Source: a virus (taxonomy: Duplodnaviria > Caudoviricetes). From it: a stretch of 28,339 nt of DNA. The stretch spans positions 1 to 28,339 of the IMG/VR virus record IMGVR_UViG_3300029183_000032. One strand, written 5' to 3'. The notes below the pieces were generated by a model. The model was not told the origin of the DNA, did no database searches, and was given only the letters and a program-made list of their open reading frames with translations. A program made the position numbers and the translations under genes. Position 1 is the first letter of the stretch, and each line of letters begins with the position of its first letter. Below, piece by piece: positions 7,652 to 27,321 of the stretch.

Positions 7652-7652
7652 T

Positions 7653-9690: not shown

Positions 9691-11259
9691 TTATTTCTCT
9701 ATCCCATACAGTTTGAACTCCCCGGATGTTATGTTCCCTGATGACATGACAAGGCGTACAGCATCAACATCTCCCGTAGAAAGCCTCACCCCTGCACCAT
9801 GCATAACCCGAATGCTATTTGTTGAATCAAGATGACTCATATTGAAATCAAATATCTTCTTAGCCGCTGTGCCAGCAGGATTGAAAAATCTTATGACACC
9901 GCTAAGGCTCTCTCCGGCAGCGCTACCAACTTGATTTGCGAGCAGAATATGTGTTGCCGAACTATCCCCGGATGTAGAGTGAGAACTACTTGAAGCATCG
10001 CTATCCAACCTGTTTGATGCATATCCATAGTCTGATGCCCCTGAATCAAATGATGCTCCGGCATCAGAATCTGTCCGCAGATAAAGGCTTGTATTGTCTG
10101 TTGCAGGAACCAGATCAATAACATGAAGCTCATACTCTTCGTACGTGCTATCAATTCCAGAAGTGAAATCAATTGATGTAGAGTTTGAAGCGGTGGCAGT
10201 GGCTATTTTTGTTAAAGCGCCAGAGCCTCCAACAACCGCTGTCCCGTCTGCTTTTGAATAACTTATGACACGATAATCACCGGAAGCATATTCAACCAAG
10301 ATGGCCTCATCTCCTGCCGCTGTGGTGATATTAGCAGCGCTGGGCAAGATTAAATCTGTAGCATGATGCGTGAGCGTTAGAGCGCCATCAAAATGCAGCC
10401 CTATAACTGTTCCCGGCCCTCCGGTTGTGGCTATACTTGTAATGGTTGTTGTGCCAGTAACATCGAAATAATTACCATCAGTCCCTGGCGTAAGGGCAGT
10501 TGCACTTGCAATGTCAGCCCCTTTGGACCATTGCATTTGAGCGCCGTTCATATCAAAATCACCGCCTGCTTGCGGCGTAGTGTCACTCACAACATCTGTA
10601 AGAAGCCCCAGAGAGGCTTGCGTTACATTTGACCAATCAGTGCCGTTATATCTCAAAAGATCCCCTGAGGCCTCTCCTGAGAGCGTGACATCAAGATTGT
10701 CAGAAAGGCTACCCACAAGAGCAGTTGCGGGGCCAGCGGTTGTGATGGTTAACAATCGGGAGGTTGTGTCTATCGTGCCGGAAATATCGTTGCTGGTGAG
10801 TGTTGTGCCAACCGGGGCCAGAATAGCGCGATCATTCTCCTCACCAACCTGAGAGGCCATCATAGTGACAAGATCAAACTGCTTTTCTGTTACGTCCGCA
10901 GGATTGCCATCAAAATTTGAAAAATCCGTTCCTTGCGTATAAGGAACGATCCTTTGAATAACAATGGCTGCATCTGTGGCCGGAGCAGTTACAAATGTAA
11001 CCGTTCCCCCTGCACCAACGCCCTCACCAGCTACCGTGTAGTGTGTTGTGATTGTCTGGGTTGTCCCATCAACCTTAACAACCAGATGATCCTCATCATA
11101 AAAGAGATAAGGGAAGGAAAACTCAGTTGTAGAATTATCGCCTGTATAGGTAATGGTGTTTGTTGCGCTCGTAACCGTAGCCAGAGCGGGTGCGTACACA
11201 CTTACAGTCGCCATTAAAAAAGCCGCTATTAAAGCGGCATTCAAAAGAAATTTTCTCAT
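9691..11259 (-). CDS. Tail fibre protein (T7 gp17-like N-terminal anchor) preceded by a signal peptide
   Basis: TVTS...YTGDNSTTEFSFPY...L.V.VDG...YTV.G...GGTVTF..AP....I.I.R...Q...E..FD...M..Q anchor pattern; DTTPQ.GG and KGADIASA modules; leader MRKFLLNAALIAAFLMATVSVYAPALA. Confidence 0.85.
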   Translation of the reverse strand: MRKFLLNAALIAAFLMATVSVYAPALATVTSATNTITYTGDNSTTEFSFPYLFYDEDHLVVKVDGTTQTITTHYTVAGEGVGAGGTVTFVTAPATDAAIVIQRIVPYTQGTDFSNFDGNPADVTEKQFDLVTMMASQVGEENDRAILAPVGTTLTSNDISGTIDTTSRLLTITTAGPATALVGSLSDNLDVTLSGEASGDLLRYNGTDWSNVTQASLGLLTDVVSDTTPQAGGDFDMNGAQMQWSKGADIASATALTPGTDGNYFDVTGTTTITSIATTGGPGTVIGLHFDGALTLTHHATDLILPSAANITTAAGDEAILVEYASGDYRVISYSKADGTAVVGGSGALTKIATATASNSTSIDFTSGIDSTYEEYELHVIDLVPATDNTSLYLRTDSDAGASFDSGASDYGYASNRLDSDASSSSHSTSGDSSATHILLANQVGSAAGESLSGVIRFFNPAGTAAKKIFDFNMSHLDSTNSIRVMHGAGVRLSTGDVDAVRLVMSSGNITSGEFKLYGIEK

Positions 11260-11263: not shown

Positions 11264-14200
11264 TTAGTTTCCTATATTCTCAGTGAACCATTCATTAGCT
11301 GTTTTGGCAGTTTCCAAAATCTGATCTCCAAACTCCGAAAGCTGCTCCACCTTTTCTTCAGAACTCATTGCCGGATCTTCATAAATACGATCTGATAATT
11401 TACCCACTGTGCGGATGCGGTCATAAAATGCCTTCATGGGCTTATGCGCCCTTAATATTTCTGCATTTTCTTCTAGGTAGTCCGCTCTCTCATCACCCTC
11501 AAGCTTTCTGGATGTGGCGTGGATCTCATTAACTTTTTTCCATGTATCAAAGAAATTGGACACCGAAACGGCCCTGTATCCGGTTGGCTCCCTCACGGAG
11601 AACGCTTTAACGATAGGGATATCCGCAGGCGTAACTGGCTCCTCAGGAATCTCTTCGCCGTTCCACTTCTTTACTTCTTTTATGATCTTGTCACCAGCAT
11701 CAGTGACATAGTTCGCAGAACCCGCTAGCGAGCCGCGTAGAGTATTATCAACAAGAGCAGGAGATACACCAAGGGTCCGACCGATTTGTACAGCAGTTTC
11801 GGAAGTAAATTTGTTTTTTCTTTGTTCCGGCTCATATCTGTCCATCCATTCGGGGTAAACATTGCGTCCCGTGAAGAAATTGTAGTTTGTCAGATCCTCA
11901 ATTATTACCTTAACCAAAGGCGGAAGTACAGCGCTTGGGTCATAAACAGGGCTGATCGTACCAACAACGCCTAATACCAGCTCTTCCCAAAAATCTTTAA
12001 TCTCAGGCTTATCACCTTCAAAACCCCACGTCATAAACCTTTCCGGCACACTTCCAAAGATATACCCGAATGAGAAAGGCTTGGGTATTCTGCGCCATTG
12101 GCCGTCCTCTTTAAAAATCCAAAATAGATCTTTTTGCCACTGCGGTATCTCTAGATATTCCTGACGCTCTTCTTCCGGCGCTCCATAGAGATAATACCCG
12201 GTCAACATCACACTAGGGATTGTTACCGTTGCCATACCCCAAAACATAGTCCCGGCAGGATTTTCTTTGAAAGTACGAGCCAGCTTATCAACTGATTGTA
12301 CGCCAGCATTAAAGAAGGGTACATACTGGTTTATCTGTTTGGCAACTGGCCCACCCCGCGCAAAATCCAGTGTTGCCTCCCTTGAAAGCAATGCTGCTTC
12401 CATTCCCACTACACCTTGCTCTCTGGCCTTCTTGAAAACACCTACGCGCGTCCCTTGCTCAAGAGCCATGCTGATATCATTTAATGCCTTCAATGGCCCC
12501 ATAATCGGGTTTCTTAGATATTTCGCCATTTTCCCGCGTGGCCGAAATAGCTCCTTATAGGCCTTCTCAAGACCCTTATCATCCAGATCCATATAGGAGT
12601 TGAATGAGCCGCCATTACGCATCCACTCATGATAAAGCTCAGTCTTTCCTATAACCGCTGCCAGTCCCTGTACCATATCGATAGGTGTCGGGCGAACAGG
12701 CGATTGAAGCAAAGCTGTACCCTGATCTCGGATCACGTTTCTAATCCAGAACTCAGGTATGATTGTTGCGCCTGCTCTCAGCAATCTTGCTGAAAACTGA
12801 AACGGCGACATGATAATTCTAAATGTGGCATTCAGTTGAACTGGGCTTAAGTTTTTAACGGCTTCCTGAAGGGGCTTAGAGACTTTGTAAAATTCCCTTT
12901 TCCCATCACGAAATACTGTTACAGAACCTCTTGGCGTTATACCCGGCGGAAAACTACCCTCCATCTTTTGAATGTAGTCTGGCATCACACCTTCAAGATC
13001 CGCCAAACCCTTCGCTACTCTGTTTCTCCAAGCAAGATCAATAATCTTTGCAGTGTTGGCGATAACAGAATGCGTGGTGGTCTTGATGTCCTTATCAGAA
13101 CCTTGGATCTTCTTAATGACCTTATTCGCGTTGGCGTTTGTAAACACGCCCTTTGATGTTACGAAATCCTTAAACTCATCCTCAATGACCCGTTGGAAAG
13201 GAATGTAATTCGGGTTTAGCTCCAATATCTCGTTATAGCGCTCCTCAGACAGCACTTGCGCATCAACCAGATTAAACAACACCCGGCGCTGATAGTCATA
13301 CATCTCCTGAGCAAATGTGTCGAACCAAGTAAAATCCTCACCGTATTTATCAGCAAGTCTGGCCATATCCTCCGTGGCTTTAAGCAAAGCTTTTTCAGAT
13401 ACCTTTACATCCTCACGATCCTGAAGATCCTCAATCGTTCTGCGCGCGATCAGATAGTCATTAAAATCTGTCTCTCTGGCATCACGCTTTCCTTCTACAT
13501 GAGCTACAGAATTATCAAAGTCATCCAGTATGGATTTCATGGCTTTGCCAGTCACTTCCATAGCGCCAGTCTCAGGATTCAGCTTCGTTGTGCCGATCTG
13601 AAGATTATGCTCAATATTCCCTATAACGCCTGCATATGTCCTTGAGATAAGGAATGGGTTTTTACCAGGATCGATGCTTAGGCCACGCTCCTCAGCTAAC
13701 TTTGTTGCGTCTTCAATAGGCTGAAGGCTGTTTATAAACTCCCGGTAAAACTGATTAAACGCACTTTCTTCGTCATTGATCTCAGGCGCATCCTGCTCAA
13801 TTGCCGCCTGCATCTGCGAACCTGATACAGAGGGGGCAAACTCAAGCGCACCATCTTTCTGAGTTGGCAATTCCTTCTCCACGAAAGCCTGTTGCTCCGT
13901 GGCGCTCATATTATCAACCGCTTCTCTTGCGGCCTGAGCGCTGCCTGTCTTCTCCAACATAAGATTAAAAGCGATATCAGCAGATGTTTTCACGCCCCCG
14001 GCAATTGAAATAATCCCAGCCTCAATCAAAAGCTGGTCTTTAGAGGGCGTTATCGCATCCAGATAACCATCAAAGGTAAAATCTTGCTCAGTTGAAAGAT
14101 CGAGCGTTGCATGCAAGATATCAGCAACCCTTTCTTCCCCAAGCTCTTCAAGCATCCCGTTCCATCCGGCCGCACTAAATACTTTTGATACCCGCGCATT

Positions 14201-15133
14201 CGGATTGATGGCCTGATATGCCTTATAGAGATTCTGCTTCAGTGAGGCGGGCAATTTACTTGCCGCTGTAACCATTGGTGTCTTCAAATATTTTGAAGCA
14301 CCCGCAGCCACTGGTTTAACAATGTACTTCCCTAAAGCTGCACCTGATAGCTCACTTGCCACCTCCACGCTTGTGTGACCATAGGCTTTCAATGCACTTA
14401 CAGCAGGGCTTTCCTCAGAATCTTTAAAGACTATAGAGCCTTTATCTGTGACAGCCATAAAGTCATTTAATCTACGCTCTGCATAAGCTGGCGTATAAAG
14501 CGTTGGCATTGCCGCTGTTCTGGCCGCAACATTAGCCGCAACACCCGCAGATTTGGAAAGGACTGCTTTTTGTACGCCCTTCTCTACAAGCTCCTGTGCG
14601 CCTTTCTGGGCTAATTTCCCAATTCCTGCGGTTGCAGCAAACTCAGTCATAAAGGCTGGCATCTGTGAGCCGTAATACATGATGCCGCCGCCAACCTTCA
14701 TGCCGCGCAAATTCATCTCAATATTCTTATCAATGAAATCGTCCAGTGTGGCTTGCTCATTAACACTCAGCTCTTCACCAGCTTCTAATTTTTTGCCAGC
14801 GTTAAGAATAACCCCCGTATCAAAAGCCTGAAACAAACCACCACCGGGAAGAACATCCTCATAATCGAGGAAGTTTCTGGCCTCCCAAAACCCTATTGGC
14901 CCTTTGTTTCTAATCTCAGATATCTGCTCTTGCGAATACCGGGACTGTGCAAGAGCTTCATACTGATCTCTATGATCCTGCACTGCGGTCTGAACTTCTT
15001 CCGGCCCCTCATCCAAAGACATGGGCGTTAAGGCGTTGGTGTTTCTCTCAATAAGAGAAGGGGGCGTAATCCCCTGCTCTGCGAAGATATCTCTTGGCGC
15101 AGATATCCCCTCTTTTGCAAAGATGTCTACCAT
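11264..15133 (-). CDS. Large internal virion (ejection) protein with LPD38-like C-terminal domain
   Basis: 1289 aa at the gp16-equivalent position; DF.RGG, PFFNA..Q and Y.EIP.W.K..FW...RIPKPF..G motifs. Confidence 0.8.
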   Translation of the reverse strand: MVDIFAKEGISAPRDIFAEQGITPPSLIERNTNALTPMSLDEGPEEVQTAVQDHRDQYEALAQSRYSQEQISEIRNKGPIGFWEARNFLDYEDVLPGGGLFQAFDTGVILNAGKKLEAGEELSVNEQATLDDFIDKNIEMNLRGMKVGGGIMYYGSQMPAFMTEFAATAGIGKLAQKGAQELVEKGVQKAVLSKSAGVAANVAARTAAMPTLYTPAYAERRLNDFMAVTDKGSIVFKDSEESPAVSALKAYGHTSVEVASELSGAALGKYIVKPVAAGASKYLKTPMVTAASKLPASLKQNLYKAYQAINPNARVSKVFSAAGWNGMLEELGEERVADILHATLDLSTEQDFTFDGYLDAITPSKDQLLIEAGIISIAGGVKTSADIAFNLMLEKTGSAQAAREAVDNMSATEQQAFVEKELPTQKDGALEFAPSVSGSQMQAAIEQDAPEINDEESAFNQFYREFINSLQPIEDATKLAEERGLSIDPGKNPFLISRTYAGVIGNIEHNLQIGTTKLNPETGAMEVTGKAMKSILDDFDNSVAHVEGKRDARETDFNDYLIARRTIEDLQDREDVKVSEKALLKATEDMARLADKYGEDFTWFDTFAQEMYDYQRRVLFNLVDAQVLSEERYNEILELNPNYIPFQRVIEDEFKDFVTSKGVFTNANANKVIKKIQGSDKDIKTTTHSVIANTAKIIDLAWRNRVAKGLADLEGVMPDYIQKMEGSFPPGITPRGSVTVFRDGKREFYKVSKPLQEAVKNLSPVQLNATFRIIMSPFQFSARLLRAGATIIPEFWIRNVIRDQGTALLQSPVRPTPIDMVQGLAAVIGKTELYHEWMRNGGSFNSYMDLDDKGLEKAYKELFRPRGKMAKYLRNPIMGPLKALNDISMALEQGTRVGVFKKAREQGVVGMEAALLSREATLDFARGGPVAKQINQYVPFFNAGVQSVDKLARTFKENPAGTMFWGMATVTIPSVMLTGYYLYGAPEEERQEYLEIPQWQKDLFWIFKEDGQWRRIPKPFSFGYIFGSVPERFMTWGFEGDKPEIKDFWEELVLGVVGTISPVYDPSAVLPPLVKVIIEDLTNYNFFTGRNVYPEWMDRYEPEQRKNKFTSETAVQIGRTLGVSPALVDNTLRGSLAGSANYVTDAGDKIIKEVKKWNGEEIPEEPVTPADIPIVKAFSVREPTGYRAVSVSNFFDTWKKVNEIHATSRKLEGDERADYLEENAEILRAHKPMKAFYDRIRTVGKLSDRIYEDPAMSSEEKVEQLSEFGDQILETAKTANEWFTENIGN

Positions 15134-16638
15134 TACTGCAACCTCAATCGTTCAATGACTTGATCCTCTGTGATGCCATGATTTTTGGCAGTTTCCCGCA
15201 CGTCATCCATTGTGTAACCTTTGGACTTTAGAAACTCCTCCGTGTCATCTTCCTTTTGAAAATCAATGACCTTTTCTACGGTTTTACTTCTTCTCTCAAA
15301 ATTGACCTCATCAATGATCTGGCGGGCCTGTGCTTTATAAGCAGCCTTTAACCCGGCGCGTTTATCTTTATCACCCTCAGCCTTGATCCGGTCTTCTTCT
15401 GTGGCGTAGAACAGCTTTCTGATAGCATCCCCTCTTAGCTCCGGTGGAACCTGATTTTCTATCATTTTCCGCGCCTCACCGAAGGATAGGGCTACAATAT
15501 TTGTTGCATCTGATACCTTGGCACTCATCAAGGATTTCATTTGCTGGTTAAGCTTGATCTCATCCTCTCTGTCAAGCTCCCCATCCGCTCTTCTGCCCAA
15601 GATATCATTGCGAACGGAATTTATGCCTTCCAAATATCCTTCAGGATCTGAATCCGCTATGGAATTCAAATCATACATTCTGGTTACAATCTCAGCCATG
15701 GCTTGAGAGTTGGTGGCCGCATTAATCTCTTTTTCCGATTTCAGGTAACGCCGCGCCTCTACTGCAAACTCATCACGGATCAGGCCGTTAAGATCCATTT
15801 TATTCAACTCTAAAGTTTTCTGGTCATATGAGATTTCAGGATCTGCAAACAAATCCATCATCTCGCCCTCATTTTGAATCTGTACTTCTATAGCCGCTTC
15901 TCTGGAAGCAATCAGATCCTTCTTTCTTTGCGCCTCATCGCTCTTAATCTGGCTATCAGCTGCCTTCATAAACTTATCAAGGTCTTCAAGGTCAGAGTAC
16001 TTCCCCGCTTTAGCGTCCCTCAAAAACTGAGTGGGGCTGTTGAGGGCATTTGATCCCGCGACTGATGCTCTGACACCTTGAACGCCATCATTTAGGAGCT
16101 GTTGACGCAGCGCGGGATCTGGAATAGAGCCAGCAGCAGCCCTTATTGTATCCAAAGCTGCTTGTTCCTGAGAGGGATCGAGAAAAACAGCATTGTTGTT
16201 TGCAGTTAAAACCGTTTGAAAGTTTTCTTGCGCTCTAACACCAGCCCTGCGGGATTGTTCGCTTATGCCCTTACCTACAAAACTGAGCTTGATATTGTTC
16301 AAATCTTGCGCTGCTCTATCCCGCATGGAAGGGGGGACATTTAATTGCGCAGACCTTTCTTCAAAATCAGCTTCGTACGTCCCCACAAGATTATCAGAAT
16401 CTATATTACTAAGCTCTTCAGAGCGCTTTAATGAATCGAGGCGAAATTCAGATATCTGCTTATGATATTCAAGCTCATCCTTCCTAAGCTGGTTTTCTAC
16501 CACAGCATCACTGGCCTTACTTAGCGCATCAGCAACTCTATCAAATCCTTGCCCACCACCAAATGAAGCAGCCGTGGCTCTTGGAACTCTAACAGGAGAA
16601 ACAGTGCTTGTATTTGAAAACTGCCCTATTCTAGCCAC
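15133..16638 (-). CDS. Internal virion protein (gp15-equivalent position)
   Basis: Helical, charged, about 500 aa; GTG 16638 (ARI...) with GAGG RBS; synteny. Confidence 0.7.
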   Translation of the reverse strand: MARIGQFSNTSTVSPVRVPRATAASFGGGQGFDRVADALSKASDAVVENQLRKDELEYHKQISEFRLDSLKRSEELSNIDSDNLVGTYEADFEERSAQLNVPPSMRDRAAQDLNNIKLSFVGKGISEQSRRAGVRAQENFQTVLTANNNAVFLDPSQEQAALDTIRAAAGSIPDPALRQQLLNDGVQGVRASVAGSNALNSPTQFLRDAKAGKYSDLEDLDKFMKAADSQIKSDEAQRKKDLIASREAAIEVQIQNEGEMMDLFADPEISYDQKTLELNKMDLNGLIRDEFAVEARRYLKSEKEINAATNSQAMAEIVTRMYDLNSIADSDPEGYLEGINSVRNDILGRRADGELDREDEIKLNQQMKSLMSAKVSDATNIVALSFGEARKMIENQVPPELRGDAIRKLFYATEEDRIKAEGDKDKRAGLKAAYKAQARQIIDEVNFERRSKTVEKVIDFQKEDDTEEFLKSKGYTMDDVRETAKNHGITEDQVIERLRLQ

Positions 16639-17146
16639 CGCCAAGTTTCCTCTTATCATCAACAATCTTTGACCCGCCAGCCAGTATAGAAGTTCCTACG
16701 CCTGTAAAAACTGACTTCTTCTTTGATCTCTCCAAGGCCGCATCTGTTAAAAACGCGTTCTCATTCAAGATTCCCTGTTGCTCAAGGTTTAGAATATTCA
16801 ACTCTTCCTGCGCTGCATTATCTCTCAAAATATCCAAAGGTTGCCCAAGATTATTTGCCCCGCCTGCTGCCAGATTAGCGCCTAAACGTAAGCGCCTGTC
16901 TCTGTCGGCCTGCTCTGCATCTCTCTCAGATTGTTGTTTTGCAATATCTGCATTGCGCTTGGCGACCTGCGCGTTAAACTCTGCGGCATCATTAGCTGCG
17001 CTTGTTTCTGATACTGAAGAAATAACGGAGAATATTGTTGAGCCGATTGTTAAAGCCGTTGAAAGGCCAGATGATGTACCGAGAGCCGCAGTAAGCGGAC
17101 CATGGCACATTCGCGGTTGAAATGCGTCCTCACCACCAAAGATCAT
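16631..17146 (-). CDS. Internal virion protein (gp14-like)
   Basis: MCxxP motif (alternative start 17110), Gly/Ala/Ser hydrophobic stretch, A.FNAQVA.RNA; synteny. Confidence 0.7.
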   Translation of the reverse strand: MIFGGEDAFQPRMCHGPLTAALGTSSGLSTALTIGSTIFSVISSVSETSAANDAAEFNAQVAKRNADIAKQQSERDAEQADRDRRLRLGANLAAGGANNLGQPLDILRDNAAQEELNILNLEQQGILNENAFLTDAALERSKKKSVFTGVGTSILAGGSKIVDDKRKLGGG

Positions 17147-17574
17147 TAATTAATCCTTCCATATAAATAACCAGTCGCACCGTCAAACCAGTAATGAGGC
17201 ATGCCCTCAGGTGTCTCTAGCGTCATACCAAGCATAAGCGCCCATCTGTGCTGTGCCGGGACATCCCGTGTAATGCACTCGATACGCTTTGCTTTTATTC
17301 TGTCGAATTCCTTTTTCACCGCCCGATGGATAGGAACCATATTGCGAGCGGTAATTTTCTTACCCAATAAAGACCAAACAACCGCCTTATGCTCTTCAGG
17401 AAACACAAAGCCAGCACAGCCAATGCACTCGCCATCCTCTAAGGCCGACCAACACGGGCCAGCCAGACTTAAAGACCTCCCATATTCTGGGGTAAGATGC
17501 TCTTCCATAAAGAGCTGATCTTCCTGCAATACAAGGGCTTCCAGATGCAGCGACAAAAAAGGAACTACCTTCAT
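17146..17574 (-). CDS. GNAT-fold acetyltransferase-like protein (gp13-equivalent position)
   Basis: IGCAG, RIEC and HRWA..LG...E motifs; follows the nozzle gene. Confidence 0.7.
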   Translation of the reverse strand: MKVVPFLSLHLEALVLQEDQLFMEEHLTPEYGRSLSLAGPCWSALEDGECIGCAGFVFPEEHKAVVWSLLGKKITARNMVPIHRAVKKEFDRIKAKRIECITRDVPAQHRWALMLGMTLETPEGMPHYWFDGATGYLYGRIN

Positions 17575-19718
17575 CTATCGTACGTCGTCATAATTGGCAT
17601 GGTTGCTAATATCGCGCAGGGGAATACGCCTGAGTCTGTTAGATATATTTGCCCCGCCGTTTCATGACCTCCGGGCCATCTTAAAAATGGCGTATCCCCT
17701 GTAAAAAGGGATGTAACCTCATCAAAACCATCCCCTTGATCAAAGTCATACTCATCCAGTGTTGTTGCATCCGGCCCATACTGAAAACCCAGACAATCCT
17801 TAAGCCGGGTTGTCAGGCCAGTAATCCGTTTTGTTTTCCCCTGTGATGTCCCATCTCTTGAGCCGCCCTCAAGCTGCATGGATTTAAACGCCCATGTATT
17901 GCCTAAACCAGCCTGAATAACTGACCCGGTTAAAGAATTAGCCAATGTAATAGAGCCGGAAGATACCGTTAAATCAGGATGTGATTTTCCATCAACGAGA
18001 ACCTTAACCGTTTCACCCTCAAGATGGTCAAGCCCAGAAACTGATGCTGTCGCAGATCCATCATAGGTAAGGCCAGCATCCACATGAAACGCGTCTTCCT
18101 GGGCAATGTCATCTTCATAATAGCGCGTCATATATTCAACATGGCGAACAGTAGAACCGTTGATGTATCTCTTCACTGTCATCCAAAGTTCATCTCTCTG
18201 GCCTTCGGGGTCAGAAATAACAGCTATACTTTCAACTTGAGCCTGCGTACCTGAAGCATCCGATGATCCGCCAATTATATGCCTGCTCCATCCAAAAACA
18301 GCCTGATCCGGGTAATAGGTAAGTCCTATTAAAGTCCCGTCATTTCTCACGCCCCAAACCACATTGGCTGGCTCTTGTTGATAAGCCATATCAACAATCT
18401 GGCCTGAAGTAATATGCTCCGCAGCAATCGTCAGATCCCTTGGCTTTAATCGGTCCAGCTCGAAGGAATAAATAACATCAAAAACTTTTCTTCTCGCTCT
18501 CTGAGCAAAAATGGTTCCAGCATCAGCATGGACAGCCTTAATATAAGCGCCCCCCGTTGAAGAGGTGGTGTCTGCTTTCGCATTTGAGGGGGTCAGGGCT
18601 GCGTTTGTTTCTGAGGGCCTTACAACCCACTCCTGAGCCGTTGTCCCTATCAACAGCCCCTTCTCGTCCGAGGAAAGCCATTGTATCTGATTTACCCTTC
18701 CTGATTGGAGGGTTCCGGTTATGGCACTGTCATCTGTAACTGTTCCATCCGCATCAGAGGGTGCAAACAAAACATCTGTTGCAGAATAACCCCCAGTCTT
18801 ACCCATATCAAAGCGGTCAGGATGTCCACTGGCCCCCGCCATTACAAGGCGGTCTTGATAGAATGTAACGCTTATGGGCCATCCAGTCGTATCAGACCAA
18901 ACACCCAAGCGCCAATCAACCGTTGCTGTTCCCGCAGAAGCATCTGCACCGCTAATAGTCGCAGTTACGCTTGTTGTTGAGCCAACAGCGGTTATCTTAA
19001 GCCATGTCCAGTTATTCGCCGGATCTTCCCAGCGGATTAGTCTGCCAACATCAGATGATTGAAACCCATCACCATCATTAATCCCGGTTGCGGCAGAAGC
19101 TGTTACAGTTACGCTCCCGGTTGTTCCCGATAACGTCAGGGTTGTAGAGGTGGTATTGACGGGCATATATGGCCCATCAGTCAGGGTTAATTCATTTATA
19201 GTCCAGGATGCATGGCCTGTGCGCGTAAGAACCTGAGGCGGATGCTCGCCATGCACCAAGTACATAACATCTGCGCTCTGCGCATAATCAATCTGGAATA
19301 AATTGTCATCATCAAATAAATCATTCCCGCCATACACAGTGGAAATCTCATAAGGAGAGCCACCAGACTCAATCTGTGCATTGTTGCGATAAAACCGAAA
19401 AACAGAGTTACCTACCTCAATGATATAGGCCTGCTCTACATTAAACTCAAAGGGAATTAGCCCTGTTCTTTGGGTAGAGGTTTTAACATCAGCAACATAT
19501 TTTGTGCCGCCCCTGCGAACCAACGGGCCTTGTTTTAAGGGGATAAGGTTTTGTACAAGAAGACCAGCAGAAGCCCTTTTCTCAAGATCAATATGACCTT
19601 CCATAAAGGGGGAAAACTCCCCTGCATTGAAGGAAGTTTGGATAGGTGCAACTCTGACAGCCCATGCAAGTGATGGGATTAGGAGGAAGAATAAAAGTAG
19701 TTTAAGCGCGCGCATCAA
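17571..19718 (-). CDS. Tail tubular protein B / nozzle (T7 gp12-like) preceded by a signal peptide
   Basis: QTSFNAGEFSP, GPLVRRGGT, LIPFEFN, AQSADVM, P..VTFYQDRL and GWSRH motifs; leader MRALKLLLFFLLIPSLAWA. Confidence 0.9.
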   Translation of the reverse strand: MMRALKLLLFFLLIPSLAWAVRVAPIQTSFNAGEFSPFMEGHIDLEKRASAGLLVQNLIPLKQGPLVRRGGTKYVADVKTSTQRTGLIPFEFNVEQAYIIEVGNSVFRFYRNNAQIESGGSPYEISTVYGGNDLFDDDNLFQIDYAQSADVMYLVHGEHPPQVLTRTGHASWTINELTLTDGPYMPVNTTSTTLTLSGTTGSVTVTASAATGINDGDGFQSSDVGRLIRWEDPANNWTWLKITAVGSTTSVTATISGADASAGTATVDWRLGVWSDTTGWPISVTFYQDRLVMAGASGHPDRFDMGKTGGYSATDVLFAPSDADGTVTDDSAITGTLQSGRVNQIQWLSSDEKGLLIGTTAQEWVVRPSETNAALTPSNAKADTTSSTGGAYIKAVHADAGTIFAQRARRKVFDVIYSFELDRLKPRDLTIAAEHITSGQIVDMAYQQEPANVVWGVRNDGTLIGLTYYPDQAVFGWSRHIIGGSSDASGTQAQVESIAVISDPEGQRDELWMTVKRYINGSTVRHVEYMTRYYEDDIAQEDAFHVDAGLTYDGSATASVSGLDHLEGETVKVLVDGKSHPDLTVSSGSITLANSLTGSVIQAGLGNTWAFKSMQLEGGSRDGTSQGKTKRITGLTTRLKDCLGFQYGPDATTLDEYDFDQGDGFDEVTSLFTGDTPFLRWPGGHETAGQIYLTDSGVFPCAILATMPIMTTYDR

Positions 19719-20265
19719 TCCAAGCGTCCTCCGGTAATGGTGTAGGTGGATTTTCTAGCGCATCAGCCGTGAAAGCTGTTGAGACAGCAAATTGGAAATC
19801 TTTGAGAGCGGCTTCTTTTTTGGTGTTGGATTGCGTAATAGGCTCCGCAGCTTCATAGGCCATCTTTGAAGCAAACGCTTCCTCAAACAAAGGGGAAAAT
19901 TCAGCCTCATCCGTAACTTGCTTGATATAGCGAATTTTAAGCGGCGTTCCCTCATCTGTATGAATGTAACCGCCTCTCACCCGGTAATCAGGGTCATCTT
20001 TAATAGCCAAGAGAGCCAAGCAATCATTTGGCAATAAGTAACGATTATCATAACCCCATTCAGGCGCTGTCCCATCAACAGCAATAGAATCCAATTCTAT
20101 AGCAAAATTCCAGGGGTAGGATTGCAGCAAGGCATCACGAACACTGTCATACATCTCATTCAAAGTCCTTGCGGGCTTCGTATTCGTTGTCTCAACGTTT
20201 GCAACGCGAGGCTCACCAAGTTTGGCAAGCGCCCGGTTACAGATGCTCGTTTTATTAGATGCCAT
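19702..20265 (-). CDS. Tail tubular protein A / adaptor (T7 gp11-like)
   Basis: ICNRALAKLG, RDALL...PWNFA and Y.LP.DCL motifs. Confidence 0.88.
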   Translation of the reverse strand: MASNKTSICNRALAKLGEPRVANVETTNTKPARTLNEMYDSVRDALLQSYPWNFAIELDSIAVDGTAPEWGYDNRYLLPNDCLALLAIKDDPDYRVRGGYIHTDEGTPLKIRYIKQVTDEAEFSPLFEEAFASKMAYEAAEPITQSNTKKEAALKDFQFAVSTAFTADALENPPTPLPEDAWIDARA

Positions 20266-20276: not shown

Positions 20277-20771
20277 CTATTCCATATACTGGATTTGCCC
20301 GGTTACTGTACCGTCGGCAGTCGTGCCAGTGTCCGTGGTTAGGGAGATATAAAGATCCCCATAAGCAGGACGGGCAGACAGCCCAGCAAGTTCCCAAGCG
20401 GATTGTTTAGCTGTGTTAATGTCAGGAGCGCTAAAGCGATATTCAGTCAATCCTACAGCAGCAGCATTAACATCAATATTATTAGCAATAGCGTCTGCAT
20501 CAACAGCAGTGTAGGTTCCATCAGCATTCTTGGTGTAGAAGCCAATATCAACCGTTCCTGCCGTGCCGAGATCATCAAATGCGAATTTAACACTCAGCAA
20601 TACAGCATCAATCGGAACACGGAAAACGTGAGCAATGTCACCATTCGCCGTATCGGTTAGTTCAAACGTATCAACCGCTCCTTTGACAACCCCACCGTGC
20701 AAACGGGAAGGCACAACGTCAGGAGGAGTAGCATCAAAGTCAGTAATGTGTGACCCTTTTTGAGTAGCCAT
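20277..20771 (-). CDS. Capsid-associated / decoration-like protein
   Basis: Beta-rich 164 aa directly after the capsid gene; strong AGGAGG RBS. Confidence 0.6.
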   Translation of the reverse strand: MATQKGSHITDFDATPPDVVPSRLHGGVVKGAVDTFELTDTANGDIAHVFRVPIDAVLLSVKFAFDDLGTAGTVDIGFYTKNADGTYTAVDADAIANNIDVNAAAVGLTEYRFSAPDINTAKQSAWELAGLSARPAYGDLYISLTTDTGTTADGTVTGQIQYME

Positions 20772-20782
20772 GATCTCCTCCT

Positions 20783-21682
20783 TTAGCTTTCAGAACACTT
20801 GATTTCGACACACTTGGCTTCCTCAAGACGTGTGTAGCCAGTGTTCATAGTGGCCTCCACGTAATCAGGATTACCTTGCAAGTCGGAACGTTTACGGACT
20901 TCCCCTTTGATGGTTTGCCACACACCGCGCCCCATGCCGGACTTAACCCACACAGGCAAGCGCCTATAAGAGTTTGTATCCGTTGGAAGACGGTTAGAAA
21001 TGTGGAAATTCATCCCGAGGAACCTACGAACAAAACCATCCTCAAGAACGGGTCTGTCACCGGGAGCAAGATTGAAATCCGTAGATACAATCTGCGTTAG
21101 TGCCAGAAGCTCATCATGCTGGAATGGAGCAATACCGATATGAATTTCTTCATTGTCGGCATCAACATCGCCTTCCAGTAAGATTTTCTGAGCGTTCCGT
21201 AATTTAGGAATGTTCAGTCCGGTTGCGCTACCCGGCCCCACAGTCACAGCCACTTGTTGAGCAGCAGGGAATGTGGTTGAAGTACCGCCTGTCTCACCTG
21301 TCATTGCTGTACCGAAAAATGCTTCTGTAAACAGATCGTCACTTTTACGGTTAAGCGCAGCAACAGCCGAGCGCACATATGCACCTTGCGGCGCAATGTT
21401 TGTTTGAAGTAGGTCAATGTCATCAACGACCTTGCCCCAATCAAACGTTCTTGGGTAAACCCAGCGACCATCATGAGTTACATCAATATTGACGGCTGGC
21501 TTTGCCCGTTCAGTCCGTTCAACAGCTTCGGTAGAATCTACCTGAGATGTCATACGGAATGCTTTACTTCCAGCAGCATCCTGCTCCATGACGAAATTCG
21601 CCAATACAGGGGCCATTTGCTGTGCAAGTAGATCGAGGTTTTCAGAGTATTTCTGAGTCCTCAGAGCTTCGATATCTGCCAT
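20783..21682 (-). CDS. Major capsid protein
   Basis: LLAQQ, AALNRK.D, F.G.A.TG..G.T, RFLGMNF..SNRL and G.TRLEE.K.V.I.C.E motifs; GGAGG RBS before ATG 21682; follows the scaffold gene. Confidence 0.9.
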   Translation of the reverse strand: MADIEALRTQKYSENLDLLAQQMAPVLANFVMEQDAAGSKAFRMTSQVDSTEAVERTERAKPAVNIDVTHDGRWVYPRTFDWGKVVDDIDLLQTNIAPQGAYVRSAVAALNRKSDDLFTEAFFGTAMTGETGGTSTTFPAAQQVAVTVGPGSATGLNIPKLRNAQKILLEGDVDADNEEIHIGIAPFQHDELLALTQIVSTDFNLAPGDRPVLEDGFVRRFLGMNFHISNRLPTDTNSYRRLPVWVKSGMGRGVWQTIKGEVRKRSDLQGNPDYVEATMNTGYTRLEEAKCVEIKCSES

Positions 21683-21687
21683 GATAT

Positions 21688-21857
21688 CCTCCACAGTTTA
21701 GGTTGAAACTGCGGCTTTGCTTGTCACTCAGAACGAGTGGGCGAGTCCTGCATGTATGACGCTCATGCTAGTGCGATAGTCTTTCCTATTGTCAGCCGGG
21801 GTCTTTCGACTTGCCCGGACCTAAGCCCTCACGCGGATATCCACGCAAGGTACTCTG
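21688..21857 (-). promoter_or_regulatory. Structured leader upstream of the capsid gene
   Basis: Series of hairpins on the - strand, including CCGGG-CAA-GTC-GAAA-GAC-CCCGG, GCATG/CATGC, CACTC/GAGTG, and CAGTTT/AAACTG next to the RBS. Confidence 0.45.
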
Positions 21858-22754
21858 TTATGTGCCAAAAATAACTTGGTTAAGGGCTTCCATGCGCTTG
21901 TAATCAACGCCCTTACCTTCGTTATAAGCTCTCAATCGATCCTTATTTGATGGATCTTTAAGTTCTTCCTTTAGCTGTGCTTTCTCAGCTTTGGCCTGTT
22001 CTGGTGAGAAGCCGTAAGGACGAACCCCATCACCGGAATCATGCACCTTGTCTTCTCCAATTTGTTCACCGAGATTGGCAAACATCTTGAGCATATTTGC
22101 TGTACCAATGGCTTGTTCAATTTTATTAAGGGCCTCTTCCTTGTCCACGCCCTCAGGTAATCCGGCCCGCACAGTCCTGCGGCCTAGCTCTTCACGCTCT
22201 GCATAAGCGCTGCCCCACTCTTTCTTTAAAGCTTCAAGCTGCCCGGATTGCTCAATTTCAAGCTGTTTGGCGGATTCTTCTATGATAGCCCCCTCATATT
22301 CCATGGTGGCTGAAATCATTGCGTCACGTTGCGCCTGATTTAAGCCAAGGCCATGCGCCATTTTTGTAGCAAACTCCATACGGCCCGTGTCTACAGCCGC
22401 GCCTTCAGGAACTTCAAACTCTGCATAATCCTCTGGTTTTTCGGGCCTTCCCAATCGGGTATAAACCTCATCCAAGGCGCCTGCCTCAGTTATATCTTTC
22501 GGTAATTTTATGAGCTGGTCTGCTGGAACGCCCTGGAACTTCTCAAGTTCTTGATAGGCTGTCAGTGCTTTAAGGGGGTCATCCCATCCCTTATTTTGCA
22601 CAAATCCTTTCTGCTCATCTGTCACGCCTTCAACGTCATACCAAGCTTTCGCTTCGTTTTCGTTTTCGTTTCCGGCTCCGTTTTCTGCACTTTGGCCTTG
22701 TCCGGGATCTGCTTGTCCTGAATCTTCAGGGGCTGCGGGGGCTGCTTCAGTCAT
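21858..22754 (-). CDS. Capsid scaffolding/assembly protein
   Basis: Acidic flexible N-terminus; RLGRPEKPEDY, GLNQAQ, LKKEWG and GED motifs; GAGGAGG RBS before ATG 22754. Confidence 0.8.
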   Translation of the reverse strand: MTEAAPAAPEDSGQADPGQGQSAENGAGNENENEAKAWYDVEGVTDEQKGFVQNKGWDDPLKALTAYQELEKFQGVPADQLIKLPKDITEAGALDEVYTRLGRPEKPEDYAEFEVPEGAAVDTGRMEFATKMAHGLGLNQAQRDAMISATMEYEGAIIEESAKQLEIEQSGQLEALKKEWGSAYAEREELGRRTVRAGLPEGVDKEEALNKIEQAIGTANMLKMFANLGEQIGEDKVHDSGDGVRPYGFSPEQAKAEKAQLKEELKDPSNKDRLRAYNEGKGVDYKRMEALNQVIFGT

Positions 22755-22998
22755 AATCGTAGTCCTCCTCGTAGTTGTAATATTCGTCGAAATCGACATT
22801 CATAAAATTGGCGATCCGTAAAAATACTTCACGCCGCCCTTCCATACGGGCCATCTCTAATGGGTCCGTAGAGAAATTCGTCCTTGTTGGATTACAAAAG
22901 GTTCGCAAATCTGCCAGCACCACCTTGCCGGACTCATCACCCAAAGCGAGGCGATAATCTGTCTGCTTCCTTCGCAGAAGCTTAAATGGGCCGCTCAT
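22747..22998 (-). CDS. Conserved small head-module protein (Bbp19-like)
   Basis: G..VLADL..FC and A..EGRREV..RI pattern; between portal and scaffold. Confidence 0.7.
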   Translation of the reverse strand: MSGPFKLLRRKQTDYRLALGDESGKVVLADLRTFCNPTRTNFSTDPLEMARMEGRREVFLRIANFMNVDFDEYYNYEEDYDYD

Positions 22999-23498
22999 TA
23001 CTTCTTCTTTTTCTTGGATTTCTTGGCTGCTTTTGCGACCTCTTCCTCAACCTCTTTTGCAGCCTCGGCCTCTATGCTTTCGGCTGATTTCTTGGCGCGG
23101 AGCTTGCGCTTAGCCTCATCCTTGGCCATCTTTTTGGCTCTGGCTTCACGAATAGCCTCATTTTTAGCTTCTTCTTCAGCGGCTTTTTTCTCTTTATCAG
23201 CCTTAGCTTTTGCGACTTGTGCAGCCTCAGCTTCAACCCTTTTGGCACGCTCATCTTCTCTTTTCTGAGTGGATGTCCTGTATGGTTCACCGCTTGGAGT
23301 TTGAGAACGACGAATGGCAAACAGCATTTCAACAGTGGCATCAACACCGCCATTGCGATTGATCTCTTCCTGAATGACAGATTCCATGTCGCACTTGGAC
23401 CATTTTTCGCCCTTAAGCTTCATGATGACAATCTGAAATGCGTCCGTGACATCGAAGCCGTATTGGTTACAGTCTCCAAAAGTGTGTAAAGGTGTCAT
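22998..23498 (-). CDS. Hypothetical protein with long Lys/Ala/Glu helical tail
   Basis: GGAG RBS; coupled at both ends; ends KKSKKKKK. Confidence 0.75.
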   Translation of the reverse strand: MTPLHTFGDCNQYGFDVTDAFQIVIMKLKGEKWSKCDMESVIQEEINRNGGVDATVEMLFAIRRSQTPSGEPYRTSTQKREDERAKRVEAEAAQVAKAKADKEKKAAEEEAKNEAIREARAKKMAKDEAKRKLRAKKSAESIEAEAAKEVEEEVAKAAKKSKKKKK

Positions 23499-23641
23499 GA
23501 TAATTTCTCCAATATTTTGTTTAAAAGAAATAGCTGCTTTATATTTGCAACATCGTAATGCTCTATAGGTCTGCGCTTATCTTCAGGCACTCCCTCTAAA
23601 TACCAATCCAGCGCCTGTTGTTTTAATGCGTCAAACTTCAT
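23495..23641 (-). CDS. Small hypothetical protein (48 aa)
   Basis: TAAGGA RBS; MKFDALKQQALDWYLEGVPEDKRRPIEHYDVANIKQLFLLNKILEKLS*; ATGA coupling. Confidence 0.6.
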   Translation of the reverse strand: MKFDALKQQALDWYLEGVPEDKRRPIEHYDVANIKQLFLLNKILEKLS

Positions 23642-23651
23642 GGTCGTATCC

Positions 23652-25280
23652 TTATTGGTTAAATGATTGAGCCTGCGCGATATCCTTGATTGAACTGGCT
23701 ACAGATGGAGCAGCCTCGACAGCCGCTGCAAGCTCTTGTTGCTGCTGTCTTCCATTGCGGATTGCCTCTTTCTGCTCATCTGAAAGGAATAATCTTGAAG
23801 GTGCGCCGTTCGCATCCCCGATAATGTCTATGTATTCATCCAGATCGAAGTTATCCATGATGGTCGGATCAAGCTCTACAAGCGGGATTGCTGCATCGAT
23901 TGTCCGTTGTGTGGCAAGCGCTTCTTCCGATTTCTGCATTCTGTTCAAAGGTGAGGTGTATTCGATCTCTATCTCTCCCCCCGCCTCTCTCAGAATATCA
24001 GGCATCGGTAATGCACCGTCCTCATCAAACACGCCGTTAAAGTCCAGAATATCAATCTCGCGCTCAATCATTGGCCCAAGAGCTTCTGATTGCTGCCTGC
24101 CCATTGTTGGCGAGAGTAGCGCTCCTTTTTCCTGTGCGCGTTGTAAAACCTCTGTGGCTGTCATTGAGGGGCTTTCAACAAGGATCTGAAATAAAGTTAC
24201 AAGGAATGTGTCATTAATCACTTCCCTTGATTGCTCAATCACATCGTTTGATAAGCTGCCTTTGTAATTATTCTCAAATGGTTTGGCCCTAAAGTTCCCA
24301 TTATCATCCAAAGCGCCATAATTGATATGCCTTGGCTTCATGTGCATCTTGCGCACAGCAAGCTCATCAGACGCTGCAATTGGTGGGTCAATCGCCATAT
24401 GCCGCGCTCTCAAATCACTCTTGCGCATGGCATTGAGCATCTTAATCTCTGCCAATGCTGTCATAGCTGGTGAGCGCCCATAAACCTCACAAGGCGCTGT
24501 CACATAACGCGAGACAATAAACGGGAATGTACGGAAATATCCCGTTCCCAATAATCTGCGCCCCTCAACACTCACATGCGTTGAAATAAACTTCCAATGT
24601 CTCGGAGTGCGCGAACCCTCGATATAGTCAGGATTAAGCTTCACACACTGGATAAACCAGAATTTTTGCGATGGGTTCTTTTCAAGAGCATTCAATATGG
24701 CTTGTGGCAGATCCGCACTGGGAAACTTTTGCCTTGCCTGAAACGCTGTCAGCCTGTATTTCCGGTAATCTGTCTCAATCAGGCCGTTGGAGTTTTCAAG
24801 AAAGTGATGCTCCGATAGGTGAGAAGATTTATAGCGCGTTCCCATCCCAGGAATATCTTCAAGCACCAAGACCCCAGTACCAAAGGCCCCCAGTGACATG
24901 TAATTCTCATGCTGCTGAGAGGCAAAATTAGCTTTAGGCCTGTATCTGAGCGAAAAGAGTACATCAGTCAGATCATCCAAAAAGGTTGTGACCTCATGAT
25001 TTTCATTCAGATCCTTATCCGAAGTTCTCAGCTTGTGCCATTGTGATGACCGAGGCGTAAGAATAGATTCCATTGCCGCAGAAAACCGCTCAAGCGCGAG
25101 TGAAGCCGTATCATCATATTTCTTTGAGTTACGCTTCTCGCCCTGCCGTTTCTCCTGCGAAAAGAAATCGTCCTGCCTTGTCAGAACAAGAGGCGCTACC
25201 TCAGCCCAATGATCTTCAAATGTCGAGCGTTCACGGGCTAATGAGTCCGTGACATCAATAATCTCAGTGGCTGTTTCCAT
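23652..25280 (-). CDS. Portal / head-to-tail connector
   Basis: 542 aa; AFGTG, EVYGRSPA, MTATEV..R..E....L.P..GR.Q.E.LGPMIER and IEYTSPL motifs. Confidence 0.92.
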   Translation of the reverse strand: METATEIIDVTDSLARERSTFEDHWAEVAPLVLTRQDDFFSQEKRQGEKRNSKKYDDTASLALERFSAAMESILTPRSSQWHKLRTSDKDLNENHEVTTFLDDLTDVLFSLRYRPKANFASQQHENYMSLGAFGTGVLVLEDIPGMGTRYKSSHLSEHHFLENSNGLIETDYRKYRLTAFQARQKFPSADLPQAILNALEKNPSQKFWFIQCVKLNPDYIEGSRTPRHWKFISTHVSVEGRRLLGTGYFRTFPFIVSRYVTAPCEVYGRSPAMTALAEIKMLNAMRKSDLRARHMAIDPPIAASDELAVRKMHMKPRHINYGALDDNGNFRAKPFENNYKGSLSNDVIEQSREVINDTFLVTLFQILVESPSMTATEVLQRAQEKGALLSPTMGRQQSEALGPMIEREIDILDFNGVFDEDGALPMPDILREAGGEIEIEYTSPLNRMQKSEEALATQRTIDAAIPLVELDPTIMDNFDLDEYIDIIGDANGAPSRLFLSDEQKEAIRNGRQQQQELAAAVEAAPSVASSIKDIAQAQSFNQ

Positions 25281-25510
25281 TAACCACCTAACAATTTCTT
25301 AGTGGCCAGTCCGCTTGAATCATCACCCTGTACACCCTGCGCACCCGTCAGGATTGTTGCGCCTCTTCCCTGCTGGCTGGCTATTTTCTGGCGCTGTTTC
25401 TTTTTGGTTTCGCTGCCTTCTTTATTCACATCCTCAGGCTTTGGTGGTGGCTTAGGCGGTGGTGGTAACTTAGGCTTGTCGGGTTTTATAATCTTTCCAA
25501 TAGATCCCAT
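25280..25510 (-). CDS. Small Pro/Lys-rich virion protein upstream of the portal
   Basis: AAGGAGG RBS before ATG 25510; PPPP, GR.ATILTG..G and KKLLGG pattern. Confidence 0.75.
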   Translation of the reverse strand: MGSIGKIIKPDKPKLPPPPKPPPKPEDVNKEGSETKKKQRQKIASQQGRGATILTGAQGVQGDDSSGLATKKLLGG

Positions 25511-25520
25511 AAGGGCCTCC

Positions 25521-27074
25521 TTAATGTGCGAACTCGTCGTAATCTGTTTCTGCCGATTGCGGCTGTGGTGGTAAATGTTGGTGCCCACCAATCATTTCCA
25601 TCTTGCGGTCTTTGTCTCCCATAGCGAATGTACGGAAAGCGTCCGAGCCGTTGGAAGCAGTGTTGTGTAGCGGTTTGTCCTGAAAGCCGGAGCCTTCAAC
25701 CCATTTCTTACGGTATGCGCTCAGATGCTTGATCCCTTCAGAGCATCCAGCCTCATCAAATGTGCAGCGCTTTAACGTTGGTCGGCATTGATTTCGGATG
25801 TCTGTAAAAACATCCTTTGTCCTTGTAACGATTGATATGGGCCTTATGCCGACCTTTTGCGCTTCTTTCTTCGCGCTCGTTACCTCTCCGGCCATAATTC
25901 TTGTTGTGCCATCATGCGGTAAATTATGATGGTTGTAGGTATATCCTAGGCTTGTGAGATACTGCGCGTAATGCGCCCATCCCTCATCAGCGCATTCGTA
26001 GTAATGAATAAATCTGTATTCAAGGCCGATATGCTGCATGAACCAGATAGCGGTTTCATCATTTAAACCCAGATCCCACCATGTCGAGACAGGCAGACTT
26101 GGCTCGTAAGGGAAATAACCAATGCGCTTGTTCTTGCGCAGATACGCTATTTCCTTTGTGTAGATACAGCCTTCCATTGAGGCTTCGAAAGCTTCCTCCG
26201 GCGTGGAAGGAAACTCTCGCTTCATCAATTCGCCTTGCAGCGCTTCTTTCTTGATGTACCACGCTTTTTGTCCGGGCGTTAACTCTATTCCATGCTCGAT
26301 CATAAGCTTGTGGAAATACTCAGCCATCTCCTTTGTGACAACCGTATTATCACAATCTTCTTGGCCCAGTGTATAGCCTTCATGCTCAAACCACGGATAG
26401 AAATGGAACTTCGGGTCCATGGCTGTCATGTGAGAGCCTGAATCCTGAAGAGCGCGAGCAGTTTGGACCAGATCAAAGAACTCCCCGGACTGTCCTTCTG
26501 CCGTAGATTCAACAAATATCAACTGGCCAGCATGAACCGCATTCAACGCACCGGATTTAATTTCTGCCGCTTTATCCGGGTGTCTGGCTGCAATCTTCCC
26601 ATATTCGGAAATATGCAGAATTTGCAGCGTATCCCCTCTGTGTGAGGTTCCGGCACCAATTCCTGAGCCAGTAGAAAATTCTATTTCCTCTGTGCTTTCC
26701 TTGGTCTGCGTGATGTCAGCCCGGACATAATCAGGCAAATTGTCATACGCATACTGTATCTTTGCCAGCTTCTTCTTCGCATCAGGCAGTGTTGCGTCAA
26801 TAATCCCGCATTTCTGGTTCTCATTGAACAAACACGCATCAAGCATGTAGATACAGATAAACGTAGAAAACCCAAGCTGACGGGCCTTCAGGATAACATT
26901 GAAGTACCACATCTCTTCATAAAACCTGTCCTGAACACCGCTGCCCCAGTCAGTTTTAAACAACACCTTGTCGCCAGCATCGTTTTTTACATGATAGAGA
27001 TTATTCAGTCGCCAGTGCTTGTCACCCAGCTTTTCCGTCAATATCTGGAAGTCCTTTTGTTTGTCCCGTGACAT
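25521..27074 (-). CDS. terL: Terminase large subunit
   Basis: Walker A LKARQLGFST, Walker B LHISE, coupling motif EST, nuclease motifs WDLG..D, LPHD and DAFR. Confidence 0.95.
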   Translation of the reverse strand: MSRDKQKDFQILTEKLGDKHWRLNNLYHVKNDAGDKVLFKTDWGSGVQDRFYEEMWYFNVILKARQLGFSTFICIYMLDACLFNENQKCGIIDATLPDAKKKLAKIQYAYDNLPDYVRADITQTKESTEEIEFSTGSGIGAGTSHRGDTLQILHISEYGKIAARHPDKAAEIKSGALNAVHAGQLIFVESTAEGQSGEFFDLVQTARALQDSGSHMTAMDPKFHFYPWFEHEGYTLGQEDCDNTVVTKEMAEYFHKLMIEHGIELTPGQKAWYIKKEALQGELMKREFPSTPEEAFEASMEGCIYTKEIAYLRKNKRIGYFPYEPSLPVSTWWDLGLNDETAIWFMQHIGLEYRFIHYYECADEGWAHYAQYLTSLGYTYNHHNLPHDGTTRIMAGEVTSAKKEAQKVGIRPISIVTRTKDVFTDIRNQCRPTLKRCTFDEAGCSEGIKHLSAYRKKWVEGSGFQDKPLHNTASNGSDAFRTFAMGDKDRKMEMIGGHQHLPPQPQSAETDYDEFAH

Positions 27075-27321
27075 GTCTTATGGCCTGTGTTACTAAGTTT
27101 TCGCCTTCAGCATCAAAATCAATAGACAAACCAAGCACAGCCAAATCAGGCAGAGATTTCTTGAGAAGGATCTCCGCTGCCCGGATTTGCGTGGTTTTCA
27201 TCTTGTTTTTACCAAGCACATGATCTTGCAAGGCATTCAGGAGCATACTCGTCTGTATTTTCTCCCTTGTTTTTTCGTCCCAAGGGCGATCTTTGGTACC
27301 CTTGTTTTTACGTGCCGCCAT
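27022..27321 (-). CDS. Terminase small subunit (putative)
   Basis: REKIQ...L...L..H......M..TQIRAAEILL.K.LPDL pattern; directly upstream of terL. Confidence 0.7.
   Translation of the reverse strand: MAARKNKGTKDRPWDEKTREKIQTSMLLNALQDHVLGKNKMKTTQIRAAEILLKKSLPDLAVLGLSIDFDAEGENLVTQAIRHVTGQTKGLPDIDGKAG

Follow-up and report, generated by a model that had tools for sequence, protein, structure and literature searches.

A signal-peptide-like leader on the tail nozzle of a T7-like phage and the export route that it may imply

Introduction

To our knowledge, tailed phages are taken to complete their particles in the cytoplasm before lysis. The locus described here raises the question of whether this always holds, as the tail nozzle gene of a T7-like phage begins with what appears to be a cleavable secretion signal. 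In openly licensed PMC papers and bioRxiv we found no description of signal peptides on tail proteins of tailed phages; subscription papers and supplements may differ.

The window, i.e., the whole stretch of DNA analysed, is a virus record of 28,339 bases, estimated to be about 76% complete, for which a near-identical contig of 39,151 bases exists. Four assemblies from a single study are identical to the window over 17400-20400 and do not count as independent support, since three of them may be the source of the same DNA. The minus strand displays a T7-like set of virion genes, namely those for terminase, portal, scaffold, capsid, adaptor, nozzle, ejection proteins, and fibre, together with probable lysis genes. 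The features used below are the following.

3895..5037, plus strand: tyrosine integrase
5210..5254, minus strand: probable attP, the 3' half of tRNA-Lys(TTT)
6388..7131, minus strand: p247, 247 aa, a 20-residue leader and then an ATG; weak match to phrog_10356, a virion structural family (E 1.1e-4)
7142..8102, minus strand: probable lysis cassette, with a leaderless DUF5675 protein, a 60-aa membrane protein, and an overlapping spanin-like pair with a lipobox
9691..11259, minus strand: tail fibre with a T7-type anchor domain (PF03906) and a 27-residue leader (11259-11179)
11264..17574, minus strand: probable acetyltransferase (labelled from its neighbours) and three ejection-position proteins, all leaderless
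17571..19715, minus strand: tail nozzle (tail tubular protein B, T7 gp12 type), 714 aa; phrog_376, E 1.9e-179; Carin-1 nozzle 8CK1, E 3.3e-80 and TM 0.87
17616..17618, minus strand: codon of nozzle Cys700, the predicted partner of Cys641
17793..17795, minus strand: codon of nozzle Cys641
19602..19604, minus strand: in-frame ATG, nozzle codon 38, with SD-like GGGGAG (anti-SD -7.8)
19659..19715, minus strand: nozzle leader, 19 residues (20 from the TTG at 19718), seen in sequence anatomy, alignment, and AlphaFold model
19702..20265, minus strand: adaptor (tail tubular protein A, gp11 type; phrog_394), 187 aa, leaderless, its stop overlapping the nozzle start
19728..19732, minus strand: Shine-Dalgarno GGAGG within the final codons of the adaptor
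20277..27321, minus strand: genes of a 164-aa protein, major capsid, scaffold, portal, and terminase, all leaderless
27321..28004, minus strand: p227, 227 aa, probably an accessory protein of the virion; 20-residue leader, Cys114/Cys137 pair

The largest ejection-position protein (11264-15133, minus strand) contains an LPD38 domain. On the plus strand, an open-ended ORF at 1-411 displays pentapeptide-type repeats, and a 61-aa ORF at 408-593, outside the virion module, has a signal-like start and no family match.

Anatomy of the nozzle leader

The nozzle protein matches phrog_376 and Cobetia phage Carin-1 gp44 across its whole length; no Pfam match was found. Its AlphaFold model, built with 114 aligned sequences, has a mean pLDDT of 93.5 and in Foldseek reaches TM scores of 0.87 to 8CK1 and 0.62 to 6R21. 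The gene lies after the adaptor and before the ejection proteins, as expected for the nozzle of a T7-type podophage. The protein thus belongs to the T7-type nozzles and carries in addition an export signal that is likely functional.

On the minus strand, positions 19718-19655 read TTG-ATG, a hydrophobic leader of 19 codons ending in Ala-Trp-Ala, and Val20-Arg21, with the QTSFNAGE motif at residue 26. The leader comprises an n-region of net charge +2, a Leu/Phe h-region, Pro-6, and the Ala-Trp-Ala in front of a predicted SPase I cut before Val20. As the original prediction had it, translation begins within the end of the adaptor gene with GGAGG upstream: the ATG overlaps the final 14 nt of that gene, and GGAGG (19732-19728; anti-SD pairing, -9.5 kcal/mol) stands 9 and 12 nt upstream of the TTG and the ATG, respectively. 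The accompanying claim that no alternative start exists holds for Val20 (GTC), Val22 (GTT), and Ile25 (ATC), which are not start codons and have no SD (-0.9 to -2.4), but not for the ATG at codon 38 with its SD-like sequence. To say that the leader must be translated was thus slightly too strong, even though a product starting at codon 38 (19604) would lack the conserved F29 and G32 of the motif, which are kept in 281 and 293 of 299 leaderless alignment rows, respectively. As a side observation, a CCTCC among the leader codons might base-pair with the gene’s own SD (19680-19745, minus strand) in a predicted hairpin of -11.7 kcal/mol.

Chance occurrence was gauged with a signal-peptide rule of our own (not SignalP), which was written after the leader had been seen and is therefore a rough control. 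Over both strands of the window, a score of at least 5.5 is reached at 4 of 2,948 start codons, two of which belong to this leader and two to the gene at 6388-7131. In the AlphaFold model, residues 1-20 have a pLDDT of 56-59 and form a lone helix (residues 2-11), and the pLDDT is 93 from residue 21; no structural match was found for residues 1-17 of the model, matches beginning at residues 18-20. The nozzle leader is a real feature, far beyond chance.

Leaders among nozzle relatives

By our own count, 4 of 120 homologous proteins carry a leader and 106 have their start at the position usual for the family; the other 10 gene calls are truncated at the N-terminus and hence uninformative. The 106 begin one or two residues before Val20/Arg21 or just inside, which agrees with the expectation that homologues start near the motif. 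The leader-bearing set consists of this nozzle and three relatives at 76 to 82% identity. The same four are flagged by the rule among 281 retrieved nozzle proteins, and none is flagged among 150 representatives of 50%-identity clusters. Aligning the N-termini, as the original prediction proposed, gives 305 rows in which the start Met of 251 of the 299 leaderless rows falls in the Ala19 column and column 18 holds a residue in none of them, so that cleavage would yield the N-terminus that Met removal gives in the relatives. The importance of this end is seen in T7 gp12, whose first 45 residues contribute three strands to the adaptor-binding platform (PMC6702177). Hydrophobic extensions are thus not a common structural part of homologues; beyond their rarity among the retrieved proteins, the leaderless Carin-1 nozzle leaves no room for one, its residue 12 aligning to residue 24 here.

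All four leaders display Sec/SPase I anatomy by our rule (net +2, Pro-6, Ala-3, and Ala-1), with an 8-residue mean hydropathy of 3.6 to 4.0. The three relatives have changed leader letters and the same anatomy; among three members of the clade, the leader drifts faster than the mature protein (58 to 74% versus 82 to 88% identity). Other types of signal were considered and rejected: a Tat signal, as RR occurs in none of the four leaders; an SPase II lipoprotein signal, as residue +1 is Val in all four and there is no lipobox Cys; and an anchored coat protein of the filamentous-phage type, as helices in the modelled mature protein do not exceed 5 residues.

A midpoint-rooted tree was built from 29 rows picked from the 305, with the leader columns excluded. 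In it the four leader-bearing nozzles group together at 100%, nested within a larger (starred) clade that also holds 10 leaderless rows, and gain of the leader within the clade is the simplest reading of these sequences. The DNA of the three closest leader-bearing relatives was not found; scans of viral, metagenome, and genome contigs for nozzles returned full-length nozzles of at most 57% identity.

A gained cysteine pair

Cys641 is shared by all four leader-bearing nozzles, each of which has Cys700 as well, and is absent from the remaining 301 rows. No other residue is both fixed in the clade and missing from the 299 leaderless rows, and the Carin-1 nozzle has no cysteine at either the 641 or the 700 position. 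In a mean-field coupling analysis of nozzle residues 596-714, columns 641 and 700 rank 4th of 6,555 column pairs; they still rank 4th without the leader-bearing rows (441 sequences) and 3rd after all Cys700 rows are also removed (401 sequences). Coupling in leaderless rows implies that the two positions are likely in contact whatever the residue. We predict a Cys641-Cys700 disulfide that likely arrived with the leader. Neither this pair nor the independent leader lineages described below figured in the original prediction. Since the four clade members are relatives, the nozzle cysteine gain counts as one event.

A similar pattern is observed for p227, where the exact Cys114/Cys137 pair occurs in all three leader-bearing and none of nine leaderless homologues, in an alignment covering 10 of 16 loci plus the related locus L082. 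The leaderless homologue of locus L262 has Cys at 114 and 139. The fibre and p247 contain no cysteines. Leader-bearing p227-type domains with the Cys114/Cys137 pair are also seen in phages of other gene sets (L249:901-1431 and L250:9353-10570). Disulfides are no proof of export, given that tail rings and hubs of crAss001 are disulfide-linked in a study whose excerpted text leaves signal peptides unmentioned (PMC10172136).

Other leader-bearing proteins of the window

Leaders are carried by the nozzle, the fibre, p227, p247, and the spanin-like lipoprotein, and are absent from the capsid, scaffold, portal, adaptor, 164-aa, and ejection proteins. The nozzle leader is confined to a small clade, and among the virion proteins leaders are seen only on predicted outer parts. 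Among 30 retrieved fibres that share the anchor domain of this one, 8 carry leaders, all ending at the column of the others’ start Met. The Carin-1 fibre, whose anchor matches the fibre of this window, has no leader; its Met-Thr-Val start aligns with the position where the cut is predicted. Locus L082 matches the window in gene order and encodes a capsid protein 71% identical to that of the window. Leaders are absent there from the nozzle, the fibre, and the p227 homologue, the last of which begins at the predicted p227 cut position. At locus L273, a leaderless gene after the fibre starts like mature p247, as judged by inspection with no BLAST match. The ATG directly after the p247 leader (7072-7131, minus strand) is probably a leftover ancestral start codon.

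Among the fetched loci, which are partly redundant, 104 of 105 nozzle-fibre pairs are leaderless in both and one is unclear, and no leader was found on any of 145 fibres or 252 adaptors. One leader-bearing nozzle and one leader-bearing fibre among the relatives both have a longest contig of 16,053, which suggests that these two possibly share one contig. No solved relatives of p227 and p247 were found by sequence, so that their proposed virion role stays conditional. A leaderless 337-aa gene after p247 (5397-6410, minus strand) has a weak tail-fibre match and would be an exception to this sorting if it encodes a virion appendage.

Independent leader lineages

The fetched loci supplied 308 nozzle N-termini, of which 300 are leaderless, 1 is unclear, and 7 were flagged; the flag on L224 is false. 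On inspection, apparent leaders were dismissed for L126, L224, L274, L282, and L339. In two loci, L225 and L233, the nozzle differs from that of a leaderless sister phage (L236; 84 to 85% identical) by an in-frame indel of 63 nt (21 codons) right after the common TTG.

Sister-phage leader indel: L225, 8630-8693; L233; L236, 8111
Split nozzle with a paralogous 502-aa gene between the pieces, each gene with a signal-like leader: L152, 785-3604; L159, 245-957

The L225/L233 nozzles are 37% identical to the nozzle of this window, and a tree test rejects a single clade uniting the two leader groups (p-AU 1e-62). This lineage lacks the 641/700 Cys pair. L225 also contains a 137-aa leader-bearing gene after the ejection proteins. 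In the split nozzle of L152, the two genes cover profile positions 7-91 and 93-352, each with its own leader, and a piece that starts mid-fold would need a leader only if its partner sits outside the cytoplasm.

Lysis genes, lifestyle, and host

We infer that the DUF5675 protein is the endolysin and the 60-aa membrane protein the holin; the spanin-like pair consists of overlapping genes with a lipobox, and its Rz-like match is weak (E 0.018). The integrase and the tRNA-Lys half show that the phage is temperate. The att-like 45-mer matches 3 of 401 sampled genomes from the class of a Polymorphobacter record, which we take to be Alphaproteobacteria. One match, in genome G255, is exact and is itself a tRNA half, adjoining a probable integrase gene; the other two are intact tRNA-Lys genes with 3 mismatches. 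Among 401 sampled genomes from the class of an Orrella record there is no match. Four genomes of the family of G255 yielded nozzle matches in two, with the leader in neither. The best cultured match of the integrase is from a Xanthomonas phage (51.5%). The host is likely Gram-negative, and its class can be assigned tentatively.

Comparison with known systems

Carin-1 gp44 (8CK1) and T7 gp12 (6R21) share family, predicted fold, and adaptor-nozzle gene order with the nozzle described here. Their assembly is cytoplasmic, in contrast to the export proposed below. The nearest cultured relatives are nozzles of Pelagibacter phage HTVC010P-type and Ralstonia/Burkholderia podophages, at about 38 to 44% identity, whose protein matches start at mature residues 1-8.

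A precedent from a cultured phage is Cellulophaga phage phi18:3 (NC_021794), in which, over the 41 kb examined, 3 of 12 proteins annotated from virion MS/MS carry signal-like leaders. These are gp085-gp087, virion proteins according to the record annotation, with signal-peptide-like leaders as here; no phi18:3 protein matches a protein of this window in sequence. The portal, gp104, and gp112-123 of phi18:3 are leaderless, and gp114 may be its nozzle, judging by position only. The annotation indicates that leader-bearing proteins can enter the particles of a cultured phage; leader cleavage there is not in the record.

Virion proteins with cleavable signal peptides are familiar from filamentous phages, namely pIII and pVIII. 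The filamentous coat proteins stay anchored in the inner membrane, and the virions extrude without lysis, whereas the phage described here has an icosahedral head, a probable lysis cassette, and no long helix in the mature nozzle model.

For Pseudomonas podophage A1002, text of PMC13730344 describes the fibre gp41 as modelled from residue 34 on, with proteolytic removal suggested by its authors. In that paper the nozzle halves are modelled from residue 3 and the term “signal peptide” is absent. The gp41 fibre serves as a lead only to a possibly comparable case. Tailed phages do use the host export machinery for lysis proteins such as SAR endolysins and spanins, as passages of PMC3556154 describe; these are lysis proteins and not particle parts, unlike the nozzle. 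Tail proteins are not the subject of PMC3556154 or PMC5723332, as far as the consulted sections of both extend.

Proposed route and rival explanations

From the leader, its anatomy and register, its restriction to a clade and to virion parts, and the cysteine pair, we infer export, cleavage, a disulfide, and the time and place of docking. The nozzle would be exported across the host inner membrane via Sec, cut by SPase I after Ala19, and folded in the periplasm with the predicted Cys641-Cys700 disulfide. Nozzle and fibre would dock on DNA-filled heads at lysis, once the holin has opened the inner membrane, with the outer membrane still keeping the contents in place. The predicted endolysin is leaderless, which implies large holin holes and a mixing of compartments, with the weakness of the lysis gene labels to be borne in mind. 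This sequence of Sec export, cleavage, periplasmic folding, and docking after holin opening is the best reading of the locus and, in our judgement, a fairly probable one.

A plausible motive is that the nozzle would be kept from cytoplasmic sensors such as Avs13, or that tails would stay unarmed before lysis. Excerpts of PMC13581612 report that Avs13 binds and senses tail nozzles and that the portal and the adaptor are sensed by Avs11 and Avs12, respectively; since the latter two proteins are leaderless here, hiding from sensors would be only partial. The main objection to the export route comes from T7, for which sections of PMC6702177 describe the adaptor as opening the portal valve and the nozzle as the main DNA-retaining part. 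By this account, heads without a nozzle should leak. The adaptor is of ordinary length (187 aa versus 186-200 in relatives), and no temporary plug for nozzle-less heads was found.

This difficulty would be sidestepped if the nozzle had two fates, most of it being exported as a decoy, a superinfection block, or a dosage sink while a small cytoplasmic fraction builds tails. A virion needs only six nozzles, the codon-38 ATG with its SD-like sequence could supply an internal start, one relative of the nozzle (P0002) has Met at 25, and an ATG directly follows the leader of p247. However, Val20, Val22, and Ile25 have no SD, and the codon-38 start would sacrifice F29 and G32, residues that the great majority of the 299 leaderless rows keep. 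SPase I cleaves on the periplasmic side, so that chains escaping export would keep the hydrophobic leader. For the nozzle, fibre, and p227 alike, the predicted cut coincides with the N-terminus of the virion form, and both pieces of the L152 split nozzle carry leaders. We consider two fates unlikely.

Assembly would likewise stay cytoplasmic if the leader were a tether that keeps nozzle and fibre on the cytoplasmic side of the inner membrane, as the site of tail assembly, and is trimmed late or never. Membrane-associated assembly steps are known for T4, and the leader is strongly hydrophobic, as its 8-residue means show. Its positive n-region nevertheless predicts an N-in orientation with the mature domain sent out, the invariant Pro-6 and Ala-X-Ala make sense for SPase I only, and a Cys pair gained on coupled columns fits an oxidising compartment; a tether thus appears quite improbable. 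Least credible is that the leader forms a structural extension of the virion protein, or that this upstream stretch is neutral or wrongly called and goes untranslated. The clade does consist of the four sequences found, with DNA known for this one only, and given the overlap with the adaptor end, conserved Pro-Glu-Asp codons could have produced the SD incidentally. Against such an origin, there is no usable start closer to the family N-terminus, frame and anatomy are kept in the relatives at 76 to 82% identity, residues 1-17 combine low pLDDT with no structural match, and the pattern is common to four genes of the window. We regard it as highly improbable.

Returning to export as the preferred reading, a wider form of it would have several podophage lineages independently moving tail closure out of the cytoplasm, with an oxidised periplasmic stock of nozzle and fibre, the holin lesion as an assembly checkpoint, and the nozzle hidden from Avs13. 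We offer this as a tentative conjecture, somewhat short of an even bet. If true, it would mean a two-compartment morphogenesis for tailed phages, needing some way to hold DNA in nozzle-less heads.

Significance

The component parts are already known, and the route itself is a proposal. The locus provides a clean test case, with one gene, one leader, one gained Cys pair, and near-identical leaderless controls, and the natural sister pair differing by a 21-codon leader adds to its value. The leader also offers a testable means of evading Avs13, described as nozzle-sensing in extracts from PMC13581612. A secretion signal on the nozzle, the seal of the DNA channel in T7, would break the rule of cytoplasmic completion and tie completion of the particle to membrane rupture. 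If the route holds, it would constitute a new way of building a tailed phage.
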